The notes under the pieces were generated by a model, which was not told the origin of the DNA, did no database searches, and saw only the letters and a list, made by a program, of their open reading frames with translations. A stretch of 8,594 nucleotides of DNA, taken from IMG/VR virus record IMGVR_UViG_2690316210_000003, positions 1 to 8,594 of that record; one strand, 5' to 3'. Every line of letters begins with the position of its first letter. The stretch's first letter is position 1. Source of the DNA: a virus. Lineage: Duplodnaviria > Heunggongvirae > Uroviricota > Caudoviricetes. This document shows positions 1-6,024 of the stretch, in pieces. Both the position numbers and the translations under genes were made by a program.

Positions 1-986
1 GGAAAATCGATACTGGAAAAACTCTAACTCGGTGGCCAGTTTTTGTTGACCACTTCAACGCGAATATGTCACTGGCAACGTTCTATAACACTGTCTTAGG
101 CGAAACCTTCGATGATCTTAACGAAGACCGCACAGCCGACGAACTGGAAACGCTGAAAACTGATATTAGCCTAGACAATATTCCTGATGATGTATTGGCT
201 CTGGTAGGTGGAGTTGACCAGCAAAAAGACCGTCTGGAATCTACCTTGCTGGGTATTTCTCGTAAAGGGATATGTGTAGTTGATCACCGATCATTCTATG
301 ATGTGAACTGCGAACGCCACGAATCACTAGCATATAACCAGCTTTACAACTTCCTGAAAGCGAAATTCTATACCCGATCCGGTGAACGAATCCCGATGTT
401 ATCTGCTTTCGTGGACTCATCGAACGGACGAGCTACAAACGTGATCTATCGATTCTGTAGTCGGTGGCAAAATCTAACCGCCATTAAAGGCGCAAGCAAT
501 GTTGATGCTCCAATCCTTCCGGTAAAAGACACAAGAACGGGCGGTTTTACCCTTAAAATTCTGGGCGTAAACAACCTTAAAACGATGATCCGTGAAATGA
601 TTAACCGGAACTTGAGAGATGGCGATCCTCACACTGTCTTCCAGATTGGTGACGTTCCTGATGACTACTGCGAGCAATTGCTATCTGAACAGTTGAAACG
701 GCAGGGTAATACCACACGTTGGGTAAAAGTTGGACAAGCACGAAACGAGGCTCTCGACTGCCTGGCTTATTCCTATGCTGCTTCTCGTCATGTGCTCAAT
801 AAAATGTCATGGGAAAAACTCGAAGCCATCAAAGATAGTTTGAACCGCGAACCAGAAGAATCCGTAAAAGCTCCTGAAACGCAATCTGACGAGCAAATCG
901 AAGAAACTAAGCCAATCACACGACCACAACGTCAAAACATCGCCAGACGCCCAAATAGAGGCCGTAGCTGGGTAACATCGTTCTAA
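1..986 (+). CDS. Probable terminase large subunit, C-terminal portion (5'-partial; gene starts upstream of window)
   Basis: The frame of the listed 66..986 ORF is open from the first full codon (nt 3) to TAA at 984-986. ATG at 66 has no Shine-Dalgarno upstream (aacgcgaatATG), so it is probably an internal Met. Placement directly upstream of the portal candidate fits a packaging ATPase/nuclease; the C-terminal RNEALDCLAYSYAA segment resembles lambda gpA-like terminases from memory only. Confidence 0.55.
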   Translation, partial: KIDTGKTLTRWPVFVDHFNANMSLATFYNTVLGETFDDLNEDRTADELETLKTDISLDNIPDDVLALVGGVDQQKDRLESTLLGISRKGICVVDHRSFYDVNCERHESLAYNQLYNFLKAKFYTRSGERIPMLSAFVDSSNGRATNVIYRFCSRWQNLTAIKGASNVDAPILPVKDTRTGGFTLKILGVNNLKTMIREMINRNLRDGDPHTVFQIGDVPDDYCEQLLSEQLKRQGNTTRWVKVGQARNEALDCLAYSYAASRHVLNKMSWEKLEAIKDSLNREPEESVKAPETQSDEQIEETKPITRPQRQNIARRPNRGRSWVTSF

Positions 987-992
987 TAACTC

Positions 993-1010
993 GCCGTCCT
1001 TCGGGGCGGC
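993..1010 (+). promoter_or_regulatory. GC-rich RNA stem-loop with UUCG tetraloop, no U-tract
   Basis: gccgtcc-ttcg-ggggcggc forms a 7-bp stem (one G-U pair) closing a UUCG loop, 7 nt after the terminase stop; the following sequence (ttactcc) is not U-rich, so it is not a classical intrinsic terminator. Confidence 0.45.
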
Positions 1011-1022
1011 TTACTCCTAAAT

Positions 1023-1042
1023 ATTGTTAATCCAATAACAAT
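1023..1042. repeat. 7-bp inverted repeat ATTGTTA-N6-TAACAAT upstream of the 164-aa gene
   Basis: Perfect 7-bp arms with a 6-nt spacer, read directly from the sequence; AT-rich, so chance occurrence is not excluded. Confidence 0.3.
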
Positions 1043-1046
1043 TAAA

Positions 1047-1058
1047 TAAGGGGTAATT
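1047..1058 (+). promoter_or_regulatory. Ribosome-binding site (ATAAGGGGTAAT motif)
   Basis: AAGGGG core 5 nt upstream of ATG 1059; same extended motif recurs at 1549, 5304 and 6012. Confidence 0.7.
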
Positions 1059-1553
1059 ATGAGTTTAGAACTAATTCCCTTAGTAATTCGTAAAGGCGAA
1101 AAAATCACGCTGGCGAATGAAGAGGGTGTAACAATTCAGGTAGGAAATAGTAAAGGTATCATTTATCAGGTTGATGATTCTCCGGCTAATCACGAGATTA
1201 AAACTCTCTCATTCGAGATAGGTAAATATACCATCGTAATAACTTTGGAAGAAGAACTGGTATCAATGCAGGAATTAACTGTTTTGCCAGTATTCGCCAA
1301 ACAATCCAAAAAAGAATATCTGCGGGAAACTATCGCCTTAATCGAGCAAGTTATTTTCGCCCGTTTATCTGGGGACGAAGCCGCATTATCTCAAATGACC
1401 GTGAAAGGAAATACTTTCGCCTATGAGTCATTGGCTGTTCTCCAGACTCTAAAAGTCGATTATGAACGTCAACTGTCTAAATTAATTCAAGCCGAACGAC
1501 GTAAACAGGGAATTAGCCCGATTAAAAATATCAAATTACGTCTTACGCGATAA
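1059..1553 (+). CDS. Hypothetical protein (164 aa), unknown function
   Basis: ATG with strong upstream RBS; stop TAA 1551-1553 overlaps the RBS of the next gene. No motif I can recognise. Sits between terminase and portal, where lambda has W, but is much longer than W. Confidence 0.8.
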   Translation: MSLELIPLVIRKGEKITLANEEGVTIQVGNSKGIIYQVDDSPANHEIKTLSFEIGKYTIVITLEEELVSMQELTVLPVFAKQSKKEYLRETIALIEQVIFARLSGDEAALSQMTVKGNTFAYESLAVLQTLKVDYERQLSKLIQAERRKQGISPIKNIKLRLTR

Positions 1554-1563
1554 GGGGTAAATC
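1549..1563 (+). promoter_or_regulatory. Ribosome-binding site overlapping upstream stop codon (ATAAGGGGTAAATC)
   Basis: TAA stop of the 164-aa gene (1551-1553) is the first three bases of the TAAGGGG element; ATG 1564 follows 6 nt after GGGG. Confidence 0.7.
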
Positions 1564-3075
1564 ATGTTTAATCTTTTTCGACGCAAAAAGGCGGTAGAAA
1601 CTCCAGTTAAAACTAATCACCGCCAGCAACAACCAAAAATTTTCATCGATAAGCAAGTAGAAAAATTTCAGAAAGACCTGAATACACGTTCATTGGGATT
1701 AGTTGGTGATCGCATTGATGGATCGCTTCAACAAGATACTATCACAGGAACCTTCAATAAGGCTCTCAAATCGAACGGTAAGCGCCTTTATGATCAGGGT
1801 CGTACTCTGGCTATAAACAATGCTGTAGGCAAGCGATACAAGCAGTATATCGTTGACCAAGTTGTTGGTACGGGGCTTGATCCGAAACCATCAATCGTTA
1901 AATCAAATGGCAAACTTGACACCGCACTGAATAAGCAGATCGAGAATGCTTTCTGGAAGTGGGCGCAGAGTGCTAAACGCTTCTCTCGCAACGGTCGCTT
2001 TAACTTCCGTGAAATGCTGGCAATGGCAGAATCTGAACGTGTTCAGGGTGGAGAATGCTTCATCGTTTTAACCAAAGAGAACAATGAGTTACAAGTTTCT
2101 ATTCTGTCTGCTGATAGGTGCGACTGGTCGCTTAGTCGTGAAATAAGCAAAGAACGTGCGATCTATCAGGGGATTGAGTATGACGTAGACACAATGCGCC
2201 CTGTAGCATACTGGTTTAGAAAAATCAATCTACTGACTCAGACCTACACTGGCGAAAATTATCGCGTAGATGCTTCTCAGGTGTGCCACTACTACCAGCC
2301 ACTGTGCGCGGAAAGTTTACGTGGTGTGACTGACTTCCTGCCAGTGATTAAGGATATTGCGCATCAAGAAGCGTTCCGCGAAACCGCGATCGTCCAGAAA
2401 CGTATTGCAGCTAGCTCTATGGGCTTTATTGAACGTCCGAAAGATTCTGGTGACGATTTTGATACTGGTGAAGAGGATGAACAATATCAAGCGCCGGAAG
2501 TAGTACAGGACTTTGCACCGGGTACTATTCAGGAATTGCCGGAAGGGGCAACAATCAAGAGCATTCAATCATCGCAAAATGGCGATGACTTTAACAGCTT
2601 CAATGATGCGATGTTCACTAGCGTATCAATGGGCTTAGGCGTGTTCAAACAGGGCTTAACAGGAGATTGTTCACAGATCAACTACTCAGCCGCACGTTTT
2701 GGGGAACTAACCCAGCGTAACCGCATTAAAGCACTGCAAAACAAATTGATTGAAACAGTGGTATTGCCAATTTTTGAAGCATATCTACGCCATTATTCCG
2801 CGCGTGGTATTGTTCCGATTCGTATTACTGCAATTCCGCATATTATCGATAATACAACTATTATTCGTCCGCGTTTTGAATCCGTCGATCCTATTAAAGA
2901 CGTAAACGCCGAGATTGCTTTAATTCAAAATGGTCTTAAATCACGTACTGCCGTTATATTAGAACGTGGTGATGATCCTGAAAAAGTATTCTCAGAGATT
3001 CAAGCCGAAAAGAGCGCACTAAATATTATCGTTGATGGCGAGGGTGAAGAAAAAAATTCCCCAGCCGATCCCTAA
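1564..3075 (+). CDS. Probable portal protein (503 aa)
   Basis: Size typical of portals, position between terminase and protease/capsid, acidic C-terminal tail (DGEGEEKNSPADP). Assignment is by synteny and size, not a verified homology hit. Confidence 0.6.
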   Translation: MFNLFRRKKAVETPVKTNHRQQQPKIFIDKQVEKFQKDLNTRSLGLVGDRIDGSLQQDTITGTFNKALKSNGKRLYDQGRTLAINNAVGKRYKQYIVDQVVGTGLDPKPSIVKSNGKLDTALNKQIENAFWKWAQSAKRFSRNGRFNFREMLAMAESERVQGGECFIVLTKENNELQVSILSADRCDWSLSREISKERAIYQGIEYDVDTMRPVAYWFRKINLLTQTYTGENYRVDASQVCHYYQPLCAESLRGVTDFLPVIKDIAHQEAFRETAIVQKRIAASSMGFIERPKDSGDDFDTGEEDEQYQAPEVVQDFAPGTIQELPEGATIKSIQSSQNGDDFNSFNDAMFTSVSMGLGVFKQGLTGDCSQINYSAARFGELTQRNRIKALQNKLIETVVLPIFEAYLRHYSARGIVPIRITAIPHIIDNTTIIRPRFESVDPIKDVNAEIALIQNGLKSRTAVILERGDDPEKVFSEIQAEKSALNIIVDGEGEEKNSPADP

Positions 3076-3083
3076 TAACCAAC

Positions 3084-3100
3084 GGGGGCGCAATGCCCCC
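3084..3100 (+). promoter_or_regulatory. GC-rich stem-loop (GGGGGC/GCCCCC), no U-tract
   Basis: gggggc-gcaat-gccccc, 6-bp G:C stem 8 nt after the portal stop and 20 nt before ATG 3121; followed by aattaatt rather than a T-run. Confidence 0.45.
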
Positions 3101-3108
3101 AATTAATT

Positions 3109-3120
3109 AAAGGTGATTAA
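3109..3120 (+). promoter_or_regulatory. Ribosome-binding site (AAAGGTGATTAA)
   Basis: AGGTGA 4 nt upstream of ATG 3121. Confidence 0.65.
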
Positions 3121-3630
3121 ATGCTTAAATTTCGCCGCGAACTTAACGGTTACGGTGGAGTTATTAACGAAGGGCATACTGATCAATACGAATTTGAAAT
3201 TGCTTTCTCCAGTGAACAGCCTTATCAGCGCCAATTCTGGGATGAGCAAAATCAAGAAATGGTGGTATTAGATGAAATTCTGGTACATACACCGGAAGCG
3301 GTTGATCTGTCTCGTCTGAATAATAACGCTCCGTTGCTGTTTAATCATAATTTCGATAATCATTTAGGTGTCGTTTGTAACGCTCGAATCGATGCGGATA
3401 AAGTAGGCCGTGCGACCGTTAGATTCTCTAAGCATGGCACTTTGGCTAATGATATTCGTAATAAAGTCATTGAAGGTACGATGGAAAAAATTTCTGTCGG
3501 CTATGACATTAAAGAATATCACATCGATTATGCCAAAGGACAATTGATTGTTACTAAGTTTGTTCCTTTCGAATTAAGTTTTGTTACGGTCCCGGCGGAC
3601 GATTCGGTCGGTTTAAATCGCTCTCTAAAT
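3121..3630 (+). other. HK97-type prohead protease domain (approximate bounds)
   Basis: Candidate catalytic His76 and Ser125 are 49 residues apart; I recall the same spacing for HK97 gp4 (His65/Ser114), unverified. Confidence 0.5.
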
Positions 3631-5124
3631 ACTATCACAGTTAATTTGGAGGCTAAACGCGATATGACTAAAGAACAAATTGAAGAAATCAAAGAAGAAC
3701 AAGAATCCGCTCAGGTTGAAGAAACTCCGGTAGAAGAAATTAAAGAATCGGAAGTTGAAGAAACTCAAGAGCGCCAAGTTGAAGAGAATAAAGAAGATGA
3801 AAATCTCGAAGACGGAAAAGACGCTGAACATCCTGAAAGTGTTGATGATGATAGTTCAACTGTTCGGGAAACAGAAGAAGTAAAAGAAGAACGTGAAGCT
3901 GCTCCGGTTGAAGAAGAAAAAACCGAGGAAGTGGCTGAACGTTCCGAAGAAGACGAATTAGAAATCCGCGAAATTGCACGCGAGCTAAATATTAACGACG
4001 AAGAATTAGAACGCGCATTGGCAGTTAAAGACATGACGCCGGAAGCATTCCGCACTAAGGCACTAAATAACATTACCAATGCTCAACGTATTAACGAACA
4101 ACAAATTAAGGACTCTAAAATGGAAAAAACTTTTGACCTGAACAACGTAATTCGCTCTCTGGTAGATGGTGAAGCTCTGGGTGCTCACGAAGCCGAGTTT
4201 TCTGCAATGGCTGCTACTGCAACTATGCAGCGTGGTCGTGCTGCTCGTGGTGGCTCTGTATTCGTTCCGGCTGCTGCTATGCGTGCTGCTGCTGCTGGTA
4301 ACACCAAAGCTGACCTGACTGCTATCACTGACGAAAAACTGATGACTGAATCCTACATCGAAATGCTGATGCCGGAATCCGTTCTGGGTCGTCTGGGTGT
4401 GACTGTTTATAGTGGCTTGACTGCTCCGACCGCTATTCCAAAAATGACTAAATCCAGCGTTGACGCTTTCGGCTTCGTTGATGAAAACGGTGCTGCACCG
4501 GAAGGCAAAGCTGAATTTGCAAACGTGAAACTGTCTCCTAAGACTTTTGCTGGTGGGAACCCGATCAGCCGCCAGAGCATCAAAACCGTACCGGGCATCG
4601 CTACCCTGATCACTGATCACATCAACCAGGCTGTTCGCATCAAACTGGAACAACTGATTCTGTCTGACAAAGCTAACGATCGTGGTCCGGCTGGTCTGGT
4701 TAAACAACTGGTAGACGCTAGCCGCGTTGAGAAGAAAGCTGCTTTCACCTACAAAGACTTCCTGAAAGAAATTGCTAAACTGACCGACGCTGGCGTTCCG
4801 GCACAGTCCATCAAGTTTGCAATGAGCGGTGCAACTGCTGCTGAACTGGAATCTACCCTGAAAGATAACGGCGTTTCTGGTTATATCATCGAAAACGGCA
4901 AACTGGCTGGTTACGAAGTAGTTACTTCTGGTGTTATTCCGGCAGACCACATCGTTCTGGGTGACTTCTCCGGTATTACTATCGGTGAGTGGGGCGGTCT
5001 GGAACTGGATATGGACGACACCACCTACCGCGCACAGTCCGCTATCGTTCCGCGTATCTGGGTAGATCTGGATTATGTAGTTACCCAGCCGGAAGCTCTG
5101 AAAGTTCTTCACGTCTCCGAATGA
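3121..5124 (+). CDS. Prohead protease - scaffold-like acidic segment - major capsid protein fusion ORF (667 aa)
   Basis: Single uninterrupted ORF. The N-terminal ~170 aa carry HK97-type prohead protease (S78/U35-like) motifs as I remember them: LLFNHNFDNHLG (His76), KISVGYDI (Ser125), ELSFVTVPADD. Residues ~182-333 are Glu-rich and low-complexity, like a scaffold/delta domain. Residues 334-667 are Ala/Gly-rich with strongly optimised codons, typical of a major capsid protein. Confidence 0.75.
   Translation: MLKFRRELNGYGGVINEGHTDQYEFEIAFSSEQPYQRQFWDEQNQEMVVLDEILVHTPEAVDLSRLNNNAPLLFNHNFDNHLGVVCNARIDADKVGRATVRFSKHGTLANDIRNKVIEGTMEKISVGYDIKEYHIDYAKGQLIVTKFVPFELSFVTVPADDSVGLNRSLNTITVNLEAKRDMTKEQIEEIKEEQESAQVEETPVEEIKESEVEETQERQVEENKEDENLEDGKDAEHPESVDDDSSTVRETEEVKEEREAAPVEEEKTEEVAERSEEDELEIREIARELNINDEELERALAVKDMTPEAFRTKALNNITNAQRINEQQIKDSKMEKTFDLNNVIRSLVDGEALGAHEAEFSAMAATATMQRGRAARGGSVFVPAAAMRAAAAGNTKADLTAITDEKLMTESYIEMLMPESVLGRLGVTVYSGLTAPTAIPKMTKSSVDAFGFVDENGAAPEGKAEFANVKLSPKTFAGGNPISRQSIKTVPGIATLITDHINQAVRIKLEQLILSDKANDRGPAGLVKQLVDASRVEKKAAFTYKDFLKEIAKLTDAGVPAQSIKFAMSGATAAELESTLKDNGVSGYIIENGKLAGYEVVTSGVIPADHIVLGDFSGITIGEWGGLELDMDDTTYRAQSAIVPRIWVDLDYVVTQPEALKVLHVSE
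3664..4119 (+). other. Glu-rich scaffold/delta-like segment with in-frame internal ATG at 3664
   Basis: About 150 residues dominated by E/K/V with 39-bp periodic GTTGAAGAA(ACT) repeats (3715, 3754, 3778); GGAGG at 3648-3652 lies 11 nt upstream of the in-frame ATG 3664. Confidence 0.45.
4120..5124 (+). other. Major capsid protein domain (HK97-fold candidate) with in-frame internal ATG at 4120
   Basis: AAGGA at 4108-4112 lies 7 nt upstream of ATG 4120 (MEKTFDL...). From here to the stop, Leu is almost exclusively CTG and Arg CGT, with Gly GGT and Ala GCT favoured, unlike the upstream part of the same ORF. Confidence 0.6.
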
Positions 5125-5146
5125 ACTAGCTTAGAACCTTCTGAAC

Positions 5147-5167
5147 CTTCCCCCGATTTGGGGGAAG
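5147..5167 (+). promoter_or_regulatory. Perfect 8-bp stem-loop (CTTCCCCC-gattt-GGGGGAAG) 22 nt downstream of the capsid stop
   Basis: Read directly; followed by purine-rich sequence, no U-tract. Confidence 0.5.
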
Positions 5168-5261
5168 AAAATCTGATTCCATCTCAGGAAGAAGAAGTTC
5201 AAGAGGTTACGGCGAAAGCCACAGTTAAAAAAGAACGTAAGACTAAAGCAAAATAATAATT

Positions 5262-5288
5262 AGCCCTGCCTAACGGTGGGGCTTTTTT
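5262..5288 (+). terminator. Rho-independent terminator after the capsid gene
   Basis: agccctgcc-taac-ggtggggct forms a 9-bp stem (two G-U pairs) followed immediately by TTTTT(T); located after the TAATAA double stop. Confidence 0.7.
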
Positions 5289-5303
5289 GTATGTAAATAC
5301 TCC

Positions 5304-5318
5304 ATAAAGGGGGTAACT
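5304..5318 (+). promoter_or_regulatory. Ribosome-binding site (ATAAAGGGGGTAACT)
   Basis: GGGGG 5 nt upstream of ATG 5319; begins only ~15 nt after the terminator U-tract. Confidence 0.7.
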
Positions 5319-5609
5319 ATGTTCAAATTATCAGAATCACAATTATCAAGAATGTTTAAGAGTGCTCCTGTATTTGTGGTGGAAGGTGGTAAATCAATTC
5401 GTGCTTACCATGAAATTACTACTACCGACGAACAAGGGGTAATTACAGAATCAGAATTTCTATTTTGTCGTGAGGGAGACTTAAATCAGGGTGATGTTGT
5501 CATTGTAGACGGTGAACGCTTCAAAGTTCAATACGTTAAGCGCAATGGTGATAATACTTCTGATTGCTTTATTGCTCGTGCAGGGGGTACACATGCTCGC
5601 TACCGTTAA
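5319..5609 (+). CDS. Small virion protein (96 aa), possible head-tail adaptor/head-closure protein
   Basis: Strong RBS; the C-terminal GDVVIVDGERFKVQYV segment resembles the end of head-tail joining proteins as I recall them. Position is immediately downstream of the capsid gene. Function tentative. Confidence 0.75.
   Translation: MFKLSESQLSRMFKSAPVFVVEGGKSIRAYHEITTTDEQGVITESEFLFCREGDLNQGDVVIVDGERFKVQYVKRNGDNTSDCFIARAGGTHARYR
5582..5592 (+). promoter_or_regulatory. Ribosome-binding site embedded in the 3' coding end of the 96-aa gene (AGGGGGTACAC)
   Basis: GGGGGTA + 3 nt + ATG 5593, same geometry as the RBSs at 1059, 5319 and 6025. Confidence 0.6.
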
Positions 5610-6015
5610 TAATATGCCGAGACTGAAAATCAAACGCGCCTTGCAAGATATTATCGAACAAGATTTAGGTCTGGCTTTAAACGTAGAACAAACTCAGCAA
5701 GGCTTTAGTGATGACGTGGTTTGTTGGATTACTGGCATGAATGAAACTTATACGCGTGTTCGTGGTGGTAATGCAATGCAAGCTGAATGCGTTATCGAAA
5801 TGCAGTTGTATTCTCAGAATCATGAAACAAAAATCCATGAGGGTATTTGCCAGATAATCCAGATTCAGCCGGATAACCCACGATTTAAAGATTTGGGCTT
5901 CTCTATTTCAGATATCACTCCAGTAGCTTCTAATACCGATTATGACGATGATTCTAGTGATGGGGGTATCGTTGGGACACTTAGCCTTAAATTTTCTTAT
6001 CTAGCGCGTTTTTAA
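5593..6015 (+). CDS. Hypothetical structural protein (141 aa from ATG 5593), possible connector/tail-completion protein
   Basis: Same frame as the listed 5512..6015 ORF, but 5512 is a GTG with no RBS inside the upstream gene; ATG 5593 has the conserved RBS. Overlaps the upstream gene by 17 nt. ATG 5614 is an alternative start without a recognisable RBS. Confidence 0.7.
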   Translation: MLATVNNMPRLKIKRALQDIIEQDLGLALNVEQTQQGFSDDVVCWITGMNETYTRVRGGNAMQAECVIEMQLYSQNHETKIHEGICQIIQIQPDNPRFKDLGFSISDITPVASNTDYDDDSSDGGIVGTLSLKFSYLARF

Positions 6016-6024
6016 GGGGTAATA
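6012..6024 (+). promoter_or_regulatory. Ribosome-binding site overlapping upstream stop (TTAAGGGGTAATA)
   Basis: TAA stop 6013-6015 forms the start of TAAGGGG; ATG 6025 lies 5 nt after GGGG. Confidence 0.7.

Follow-up and report, generated by a model that had tools for sequence, protein, structure and literature searches.

RNA hairpins in the late operon of an HK97-like prophage and a possible UGA-readthrough extension of its capsid protein

Three GC-rich hairpins without U-tracts (hairpins 1, 2 and 3 at 993-1010, 3084-3100 and 5147-5167) lie behind the terminase, portal and capsid genes in a stretch of viral DNA of 8,594 nucleotides (nt; IMG/VR virus record IMGVR_UViG_2690316210_000003, positions 1 to 8,594). 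This stretch, here termed the window, covers part of the late operon, which encodes head and tail, of an HK97-like prophage, with every gene on the plus strand. We put at about even odds a joint reading in which the three hairpins are selected plus-strand RNA structures of the late mRNA with three different jobs: hairpin 3 would belong to a signal for UGA readthrough, programmed or tolerated, that makes a minor C-terminally extended capsid protein; hairpin 2 would protect or insulate the 5' side of the capsid cistron; and hairpin 1 would help to fix a structure that hides a translation start. The structures, their conservation and the conservation of a reading frame behind the capsid UGA are shown here by computation.

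Folding confirmed all three hairpins where an earlier inspection of the window (the original prediction) had placed them. Minimum free energies (MFE) of hairpins 1, 2 and 3 were -14.1, -13.9 and -15.9 kcal/mol, and the shuffled controls called for in that prediction reached these values in 0, 5 and 1 cases out of 200, respectively. A sliding MFE analysis of the plus strand of the whole window (30 nt) gave hairpin 3, the terminator at 5262-5288, hairpin 1, hairpin 2 and the terminator at 6885-6908 as the five best folds (-15.9 to -13.6 kcal/mol), the sixth (-12.1 kcal/mol) being within coding sequence. All five fall in the 384 nt outside annotated open reading frames (ORFs), i.e. about 4.5% of the prophage part, for which the probability of chance placement is about 2e-7. 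The claim that the placement is not random was therefore upheld, and conservation of the hairpins is likewise far beyond neutral expectation. The hairpins start 6, 8 and 22 nt past the first stop of the terminase, portal and capsid genes, and are followed by CUUACUCC, AAUUAAUU and AAAAUCUG, respectively, none of which is a U-run. None of the three thus has the GC hairpin with an immediate U-run of an intrinsic terminator, and a terminator scan reported on the plus strand, among these elements, only 5262-5283 and 6885-6904, in agreement with the distinction from the two terminators that had been drawn. The first of these terminators (5262-5288, plus strand) consists of a 9-bp stem, constant in relatives, a variable loop and U6; the second terminator-like hairpin (6885-6908, plus strand) follows the tail tube gene.

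Searches of Rfam at E-values up to 10 gave no match at any of the three hairpins; a match on the terminator (5258-5287) was rejected as a chance hit, having 15.1 bits against a gathering score of 137. RNase III sites of the T7 type, with near-continuous double-stranded RNA of about 20 bp or more, were not found, the hairpin stems being only 6-8 bp and the helices of the larger structure around hairpin 3 at most 8 bp. The close clade was represented by 54 relatives, of which 22 loci came from genomes or assemblies and the other 32 from IMG/VR, giving 39 distinct sequences, with nucleotide diversity (pi) and stop codons tabulated for 31 distinct aligned relatives. Values of pi were 0.0145 in the spacer between the terminase gene and gene 2, 0.0014 in the portal/capsid spacer and 0.009 around the first terminator, as compared to 0.13-0.25 for third codon positions and 0.03-0.09 for the first two positions in the flanking genes, indicating that the spacers are more constrained than the proteins. 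Further comparisons were made with a sister clade (clade 2; loci L055-L062, L125, L126, L132 and L134) whose capsids are about 40% identical.

The capsid stop codon and the sequence behind it

The capsid protein is encoded by a 667-aa ORF (3121-5124, plus strand), a fusion of prohead protease, acidic scaffold and HK97-type major capsid protein (Pfam Peptidase_S78 and Phage_capsid) that is covered over its full length by a match to phrog_617 and ends with TGA. This TGA and the A that follows it (5122-5125, plus strand) were each present in 39 of 39 distinct relatives, and the last sense codon before it varied (GAA, GAG or GAC). Behind the stop, an in-frame extension of 43 codons (TSLEPSEPSPDLGEENLIPSQEEEVQEVTAKATVKKERKTKAK; 5125-5259, plus strand) is closed by TAATAA (5254-5259), three bases before the terminator. 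The extension frame was open in every distinct relative (28-45 codons) and ended with TAATAA in every one, and the other two frames behind the capsid stop were full of stops. The extension is mosaic, with two N-terminal and three C-terminal forms, and its length differences (48 and 3 nt) are all multiples of 3; non-coding indels flanking it at the same loci were of 1 nt after TAATAA and of 1 to 5 nt after the tail tube gene. Other genes of the operon stop with TAA (31/31) except for the tail tube gene, where TGA and TAA toggle, whereas the capsid TGA is constant. Tandem TAATAA ends the genes that are followed by a spacer (terminase, portal and the gene at 5319-5609), and the capsid TGA lacks a back-up stop. 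Only one segment of the operon is strongly codon-optimised (frequency of optimal codons, Fop, of 0.86), and for this segment TGA is also an unusual stop. No separate gene is annotated at the extension in RefSeq records of relatives. Hairpin 3 is therefore not in an untranslated junction but within a conserved in-frame extension of the capsid ORF, and the original description of the hairpins as junction elements behind stop codons holds for hairpins 1 and 2 only.

Hairpin 3 (CUUCCCCC-GAUUU-GGGGGAAG; 5147-5154 paired with 5160-5167, plus strand) is arm 1 of a Y-shaped RNA element of 74 nt (5135-5208, plus strand) that starts 10 nt after the UGA, i.e. spans nt 14-87 counted from its U. The basal stem pairs 5135-5140 with 5203-5208 and 5142-5146 with 5197-5201, and arm 2, a UUCC/GGAA hairpin, pairs 5172-5174 with 5193-5195 and 5177-5180 with 5187-5190 (both on the plus strand). 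Pair probabilities of these stems were 0.87-1.0, and 0.7-1.0 when all sequence types are taken together (z = -5.0). Among 26 distinct sequences of the majority type, 0 of 46 paired columns and 13 of 28 unpaired columns were variable (Fisher P = 4e-7), a test that is biased in favour of the structure since this was predicted from the same sequences. With all 29 sequences the counts were 2/46 and 15/28, the two varying paired columns coming from three sequences (including the window) with a replaced 3' strand that pairs in another register. Short forms of the extension lack 48 nt and have an unrelated 11-bp hairpin (AAUUGCCGGAA-GAAA-UUCCGGUAGUU; -14.9 kcal/mol, z = -5.2), which begins at nt 14 from the UGA, as does the long-form Y element. 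A mini-hairpin (GGC-GAAA-GCC; 5211-5220, plus strand) occurs within the extension in both long and short forms, and a further hairpin in one of the C-terminal forms exhibited a compensatory change (GGUGG/CCACC to GGCGG/CCGCC). A pseudoknot between the GAUUU loop of hairpin 3 and AAAUC at 5169-5173 was considered and discarded, as one nucleotide would have to span an 8-bp stem.

Two features of programmed readthrough were thus found: an in-frame ORF behind a stop of conserved identity and 3' base, and a conserved RNA structure a short distance 3' of that stop in both forms. The evidence for a protein-coding signature in the extension is mixed, a stop-free frame with indels in multiples of 3 and sister-clade tails of similar composition standing beside the lack of a third-position excess. 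A slippery site with a -1 extension of the T7 10B type was not found in the window, where the -1 and +1 frames are closed and frame 0 holds the extension. That hairpin 3 is an arm of a larger structure within a conserved extension in frame with the UGA points to recoding, which differs from the processing or reinitiation originally suggested. Nothing was found in support of the suggestion that the hairpins tune downstream reinitiation.

The capsid cores of the sister clade end in ...DDRLFLYEK, aligned with ...PEALKVLHVSE of the window. Several members have constitutive in-frame tails (GTPAEAKAAKQ, GTPAEAPAEAKAGK and GEAEAGETRKAK) that are acidic with Pro and Ala and then rich in Lys, as is the window extension, and in such members the stop is followed directly by a terminator. 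Other members have an early stop and a Lys/Ala-rich tail in the -1 frame behind an in-phase slippery site a few codons before that stop (A_AAA_AAG in L132, 4476-4560; an A8 run in L126; A_AAA_A or GAA_AAG in L125, L061 and L055). The -1 tails of L061 and L132 are homologous in amino acids, and these loci share a post-stop hairpin with a compensatory change from A-U to C-G. A U-less hairpin after the capsid stop was found only where a conditional tail follows. From these sequences, one capsid family appears to attach a Glu/Pro/Ala-then-Lys tail by three routes, i.e. constitutively, by -1 frameshift and by readthrough. The slippery sites are candidate programmed frameshifts in their own right; no annotation of this kind is present for Escherichia phage DCP80 (L055), the one record checked.

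In the mechanism proposed for the window, heavily translating ribosomes would reach the capsid UGA-A, where release factor 2 (RF2) would release most chains. A minority of ribosomes would decode UGA, most likely as Trp via near-cognate tRNA-Trp, and would translate 43 more codons to the TAATAA just before the terminator. The product would be a minor capsid species with an acidic and then lysine-rich C-terminal tail and a predicted junction of ...HVSE-W-TSLEPSEPSPDLGEENLIPSQEEEVQEVTAK. Ribosome footprints place a structure whose base is 10 nt past a stop near the mRNA entrance when UGA is in the A site. At the entrance of the UGA-paused ribosome the Y element would set the frequency of readthrough, and it may also shield the mostly untranslated 3' region. 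In a shell of a few hundred subunits, readthrough at the level observed with reporters would give a handful of tailed subunits per particle. Reporters of UGA readthrough in Escherichia coli K-12 gave values near 2% at 37°C and near 4% at 25°C (PMC10570021). We infer the readthrough, its stimulation by structure and the stability roles of the hairpins from comparisons between relatives. The most specific version, in which the Y element and the short-form hairpin are bacterial cis-acting stimulators of UGA readthrough that provide a fixed small number of tailed subunits, with three interchangeable routes to the tail, is put forward only tentatively and is clearly less probable than the joint reading given at the outset.

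Several observations weigh against readthrough, in addition to the bias of the paired/unpaired test. Within the extension, pi was 0.10, 0.14 and 0.13 at the three codon positions, without a third-position excess, indicating that its sequence is barely constrained, with only frame, length class and the basic end being maintained. When the capsid C-terminus, W and the extension were joined as a query, the 120 matches listed all ended at the stop (88% coverage), and none of those listed had a sense codon where the window has TGA. No post-stop hairpin accompanies the -1 tail in L125 and L126, so a hairpin is not obligatory for a recoded tail. As almost no variation occurs in hairpins 1 and 2, compensatory changes within the clade could not be scored for them; hairpin 2 is consequently supported by the between-clade comparison and hairpin 1 by conservation. 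We know of no structured readthrough stimulator in bacteria or for 70S ribosomes, and no published case was found in a literature search. Bacterial readthrough is regarded as rare (PMC5373646). Native UGA readthrough of nudL and pheL has been shown in E. coli, for pheL at UGAA (PMC5373646). B-type RF2 terminates efficiently at UGAA and makes readthrough of nudL undetectable (PMC5373646), so that basal readthrough may be far below 2% in hosts with this factor, where either a stimulator would be needed or the level would be very low.

Hairpins 1 and 2 and the genes that they precede

Hairpin 2 (GGGGGC-GCAAU-GCCCCC; 3084-3100, plus strand) follows the tandem stop TAATAA of the portal gene (3073-3078, plus strand; 31/31 relatives) and lies 20 nt upstream of the ATG of the capsid ORF, just 5' of its Shine-Dalgarno (SD) sequence AGGUGA (3111-3116). 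It is constant within the clade except for a 1-nt deletion in L016. Each sister-clade locus examined has a 7-8 bp hairpin between portal gene and capsid ORF, located 16-22 nt upstream of the capsid start wherever this start is clear (that of L062 is uncertain). Its spacing from the stop of the preceding gene is variable, ranging between 8 and about 35 nt. Eight distinct, fully complementary stems were observed among the hairpin 2 equivalents, five of them with a C(UUCG)G loop. The sister stems include GGGACUUC-UAAC-GAGGUCCC, (A)GAGCAAC-UUCG-GUUGCUC(U), GAGGAAC-UUCG-GUUCCUC, AGAGACUC-UUCG-GAGUCUCU, GAGCGUC-GAAA-GACGCUC and AGAGCGC-UUCG-GCGCUCU. Across the clades, stem positions exhibited 2-4 pair types each, and the loop-closing pair was invariably C-G. 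The equivalents have either no U-run or four U only (the latter in L056-L058). Maintenance of the position through eight different complementary stems identifies hairpin 2 as a selected RNA element, the pairing having survived a complete turnover of the stem. With folding better than in shuffled controls, the refutation test set by the original prediction thus comes out in favour of the hairpins. The spacing is fixed to the downstream start and not to the upstream stop, so hairpin 2 looks like a 5' element of the capsid cistron. The DCP80 version of hairpin 2 contains a G.U pair, as does hairpin 1, and these pairs point to RNA of the plus strand.

We consider it most likely that hairpin 2 is a stabilising or insulating 5'-flanking hairpin like that of T4 gene 32 mRNA. 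It would stabilise or insulate the message just upstream of the capsid ribosome-binding site (RBS) and, with the Y element and terminator, would bracket the capsid message. Hairpins with CUUCGG are common in phage intergenic regions, and one on the 5' side stabilises T4 gene 32 mRNA (PMC8948821; PMC4371310). The loop, the intergenic position and the lack of a U-tract of these hairpins (Tuerk et al. 1988) are shared by hairpin 1 and by five of the eight hairpin 2 versions, whereas the loops of hairpin 2 (GCAAU) and hairpin 3 (GAUUU) in the window differ from them. Hairpins 1 and 2 are members or close analogues of this known kind of phage intergenic tetraloop hairpin, and the RNA processing or 3'/5' stabilisation once suggested for all three hairpins is, judged from sequence, plausible for these two. 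A hairpin upstream of the capsid RBS also offers a defined element for testing how phages set the ratio of portal to capsid expression. A weak terminator-like site on the minus strand at hairpin 2 was reported by the scan and rejected as a terminator, since all genes are on the plus strand and a U-rich tail is not kept on that side in relatives. A scan gave no sigma-70-like promoter near hairpin 2.

Two loci have an extra gene of 340 aa and unknown function at a point equivalent to 3104/3105 of the window (L004, 4180-5376; L017, 4177-5374). This gene has its own sigma-70-like promoter (TTGACG...GATAAT) and is a moron-type insertion placed exactly after hairpin 2 and AAUU. Within the capsid ORF, an in-frame ATG (4120-4122, plus strand) is preceded by TAAGGA in 31 of 31 relatives (4105-4122 in the window). 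Fop rises along this ORF, with values of 0.49, 0.69 and 0.86 for its protease, scaffold and capsid parts, respectively, as compared to 0.48-0.59 for other operon genes and 0.58 for the extension, which is not optimised. The sharp shift in Fop and the conserved TAAGGA and ATG suggest that most capsid protein is made from the internal start and a minority as a protease-scaffold-capsid fusion.

Hairpin 1 (GCCGUCC-UUCG-GGGCGGC; 993-1010, plus strand) has 7 bp including one G.U and a C(UUCG)G tetraloop, and follows the tandem stop TAATAA of the large terminase gene (984-989, plus strand; TAA in 31/31 relatives and the second TAA in 30/31). With UUCG closed by C-G on a complementary stem in an intergenic position, it has the features of the CUUCGG class, whose stems are of 2-8 bp. 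It is identical in 53 of 54 relatives of the clade, the exception being a loop deletion in L012, and its G.U pair makes the fold much weaker on the minus strand, a sign that RNA is the active form. In the sister clade the terminase/gene-2 spacers are short and have no hairpin at this position, indicating that hairpin 1 is a clade-specific element. A helix (UUACUCCU/AGGGGUAA; 1011-1018 with 1049-1056, plus strand) directly adjoins hairpin 1, pairs the SD sequence AGGGG of gene 2 (1059-1553) and encloses an AT-rich hairpin (1023-1029/1036-1042). The 72-nt spacer has an MFE of -26.7 kcal/mol (z = -5.2; 0/200 shuffles), and changes in relatives are in loops or preserve pairing, the sole stem change being A to G in L001 (A-U to G.U). 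It is plausible that hairpin 1 acts as a C(UUCG)G folding nucleus which, stacked on the SD-hiding helix, would fix the sequestering structure and keep translation of gene 2 low. The AT-rich inverted repeat ATTGTTA-ATCCAA-TAACAAT (1023-1042 in the window) is near-constant in relatives, with one loop change in L008, and could equally be a protein-binding site.

Alternative explanations

The strongest alternative is that all three hairpins are generic stability or processing elements, i.e. barriers to 3' exonucleases and/or 5' stabilisers after RNase E cuts in the AU-rich spacers, with any tail being harmless background leak and hairpin 3 having no part in decoding. Although less probable than the joint reading, this deserves serious consideration. 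GC hairpins with UUCG or GNRA loops beside AU-rich single strands are the classic layout of differential segment stability, and CUUCGG hairpins are known stabilisers in T4 (PMC8948821). The position of hairpin 2 is conserved without any recoding context, and hairpins 1 and 2 are well accounted for in this way. The lack of codon periodicity in the extension and the hairpin-less -1 tails of L125 and L126 also fit. Stability by itself, however, leaves the invariant TGA-A (39/39) unexplained, as well as the retention of frame and length class through four independent replacements or indels and the operon-typical TAATAA ending. Nor does it explain why two unrelated structures stand at an equal distance from the UGA, or why sister tails are constitutive or reached by -1 frameshift. 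The idea of one consistent after-stop class is not supported: hairpin 1 is clade-specific, hairpin 2 is tied to the downstream start and hairpin 3 is an arm of a larger structure.

The remaining explanations, namely transcriptional roles, an independent small gene, DNA-level roles and a selenocysteine insertion sequence (SECIS), are less likely. As weak or conditional transcription signals (pauses, partial terminators or attenuators, or blocks to Rho loading), the hairpins would grade expression of the late operon. The stems are terminator-like, four U follow the hairpin 2 equivalent in L056-L058, and a structure after the capsid stop could hinder the loading of Rho on about 135 nt of mostly untranslated RNA. 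We regard this as unlikely, as the window hairpins have no U-tract and it is the stem and not the U-run that is conserved. A terminator before the capsid gene would, moreover, cut expression of the product most needed, and a real terminator is already present downstream at 5262-5288.

An independent small gene with its own start, e.g. the UUG at 5158 in the loop of hairpin 3, is a poor explanation of the extension. This UUG is present in the long forms and in most short forms, and AUG codons stand at the head of the small post-capsid frame of DCP80. The candidate start has no SD sequence, as compared to the strong and conserved AAGGGG or AGGUGA of the operon genes, and is lost in two relatives (UUA in L028, UCG in L053). 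The stretch from UGA to UUG is also stop-free and in frame, with lengths that differ by a multiple of 3 between forms. An internal UUG start was rejected on these grounds.

Action of the palindromes as DNA, either as protein-binding sites or as mosaic recombination joints with conservation arising from recombination, is similarly improbable. No part of the locus is more conserved than the intergenic regions, and the extra gene of L004 and L017 is inserted exactly after hairpin 2. Stems that turn over completely between clades with their complementarity kept are unlike a sequence-specific binding site, the G.U pairs of hairpin 1 and the DCP80 hairpin make the fold strand-specific, and UUCG and GAAA tetraloops are features of RNA stability. 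Least credible is decoding of the UGA as selenocysteine with hairpin 3 as a bacterial SECIS: an in-frame UGA is closely followed by a stem-loop, as in a SECIS, and E. coli has sel genes, but the loops (GAUUU at nt 34-38 from the UGA, GAAA at nt 25-28) are conserved neither in sequence nor in position, unlike the fdhF SECIS with its fixed position, G23/U24 and bulged U17, and Rfam has no family at the region at E-values up to 10.

Genomic setting and known systems

The window ends in insertion sequences, IS911 at bases 1-57 and IS2 at bases 8557-8594, indicating that the late operon is a truncated prophage remnant, with the N-terminal part of the terminase missing and the fibre incomplete. Between these ends, all on the plus strand, are the C-terminal part of a lambda gpA-type large terminase (to 986), a head-tail joining protein of 164 aa (gene 2, 1059-1553), a lambda-type portal (1564-3075), the capsid fusion ORF, two small connector genes between this and the tail tube gene, the 277-aa tail tube protein (6025-6858) and a tail fibre (from 6932). 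Related prophages were found in 55 of 5,426 complete E. coli genomes (about 1%), at ~88-96% DNA identity. Two scans of a species-representative genome collection with capsid alignments gave no relative, so the capsid family was traceable only in E. coli genomes and IMG/VR. A phage collection held no close relative, the best match being PQ671644 (Escherichia phage DCP80, L055) at 44% capsid identity. This record, of 141 kb and classed as Straboviridae (T4-like), opens with a terminase-portal-protease/capsid module of lambda/HK97 type that is related to the present prophage family, and it is possibly a chimeric assembly.

In its distal part (7799-8556), the tail fibre gene has 85% DNA identity to RB49 gene 37, which encodes the distal subunit of the long tail fibre in this T4-like phage, and 74-81% to other T-even-like phages; this similarity indicates that receptor-binding modules have been exchanged between temperate prophage and virulent phages. 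Judged by eye from the sequence, the N-terminal half of the fibre gene (7100-7700) has apparent repeats of about 30 codons (...TVAANKSAIETTVANNK.DADNKI...). Many relatives align with the window only from about 741-744 onward, and some unrelated prophages have only 900-1345 in common with it. These look like mosaic breakpoints inside the terminase gene and gene 2 and not at the spacer.

If the proposed readthrough is correct, the annotation of the capsid gene needs correcting, as no record marks the extension, and coding sequence can lie concealed at hairpins that follow stop codons in the late operons of phages. The Y element would be, to our knowledge, the first structured readthrough signal for 70S ribosomes, and would provide a testable bacterial model of how mRNA structure biases the competition between RF2 and tRNA-Trp. 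Recoding of capsid tails in double-stranded (ds) DNA phages is known only through frameshifting, and through UGA readthrough only in the RNA phage Q-beta; no description of a readthrough-made capsid extension in a dsDNA phage was found in a literature search.

Capsid extensions made by frameshifting are known in T3/T7, A2, A118 and PSA (PMC5009743). In T7/T3 (10A/10B), Lactobacillus phage A2 and the Listeria phages A118/A500/PSA, as is proposed here, a major capsid protein is accompanied by a minor form extended by a few dozen residues, and the sister clade seems to use the same frameshift route, with A_AAA_AAG in phase with the -1 tail. The window extension differs in lying in the same frame behind UGA, without a slippery site, and in being a short, low-complexity acidic/basic tail instead of an Ig-like domain. 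The extension of T7 gene 10B is also followed directly by a strong terminator. In phage Q-beta, readthrough of a few percent at the coat-gene UGA gives A1, a minor extended coat protein of the virion, and both the UGA that ends a coat gene and the C-terminally extended minor form are shared with the present proposal. Q-beta is, in contrast, a single-stranded RNA phage with a functional extension of 196 aa and no known stimulatory structure, whereas the window derives from a dsDNA HK97-like prophage whose proposed tail has 28-45 aa and in which a conserved structure begins 10 nt behind the stop.

Structures that stimulate readthrough are known from eukaryotic viruses, i.e. the MuLV pseudoknot and the stem-loops of alphaviruses and coltiviruses ~8-10 nt past leaky UGA or UAG codons. 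These stand at a distance similar to that of the Y element but act on 80S ribosomes and eRF1. Within E. coli, nudL and pheL resemble the proposal for the window in having an in-frame extension behind UGA and decoding by a near-cognate tRNA, with pheL sharing the four-base UGAA, and differ in that their readthrough is seen with K-12 RF2 but not with RF2-B and has no assigned function (PMC5373646). The window differs from both in that stop, frame and downstream structure are conserved across a phage family. What would be new as compared to all of these systems is the predicted arrangement, marked by hairpin 3, in which a leaky stop is followed by an in-frame extension and by an RNA structure within it, both of them conserved.

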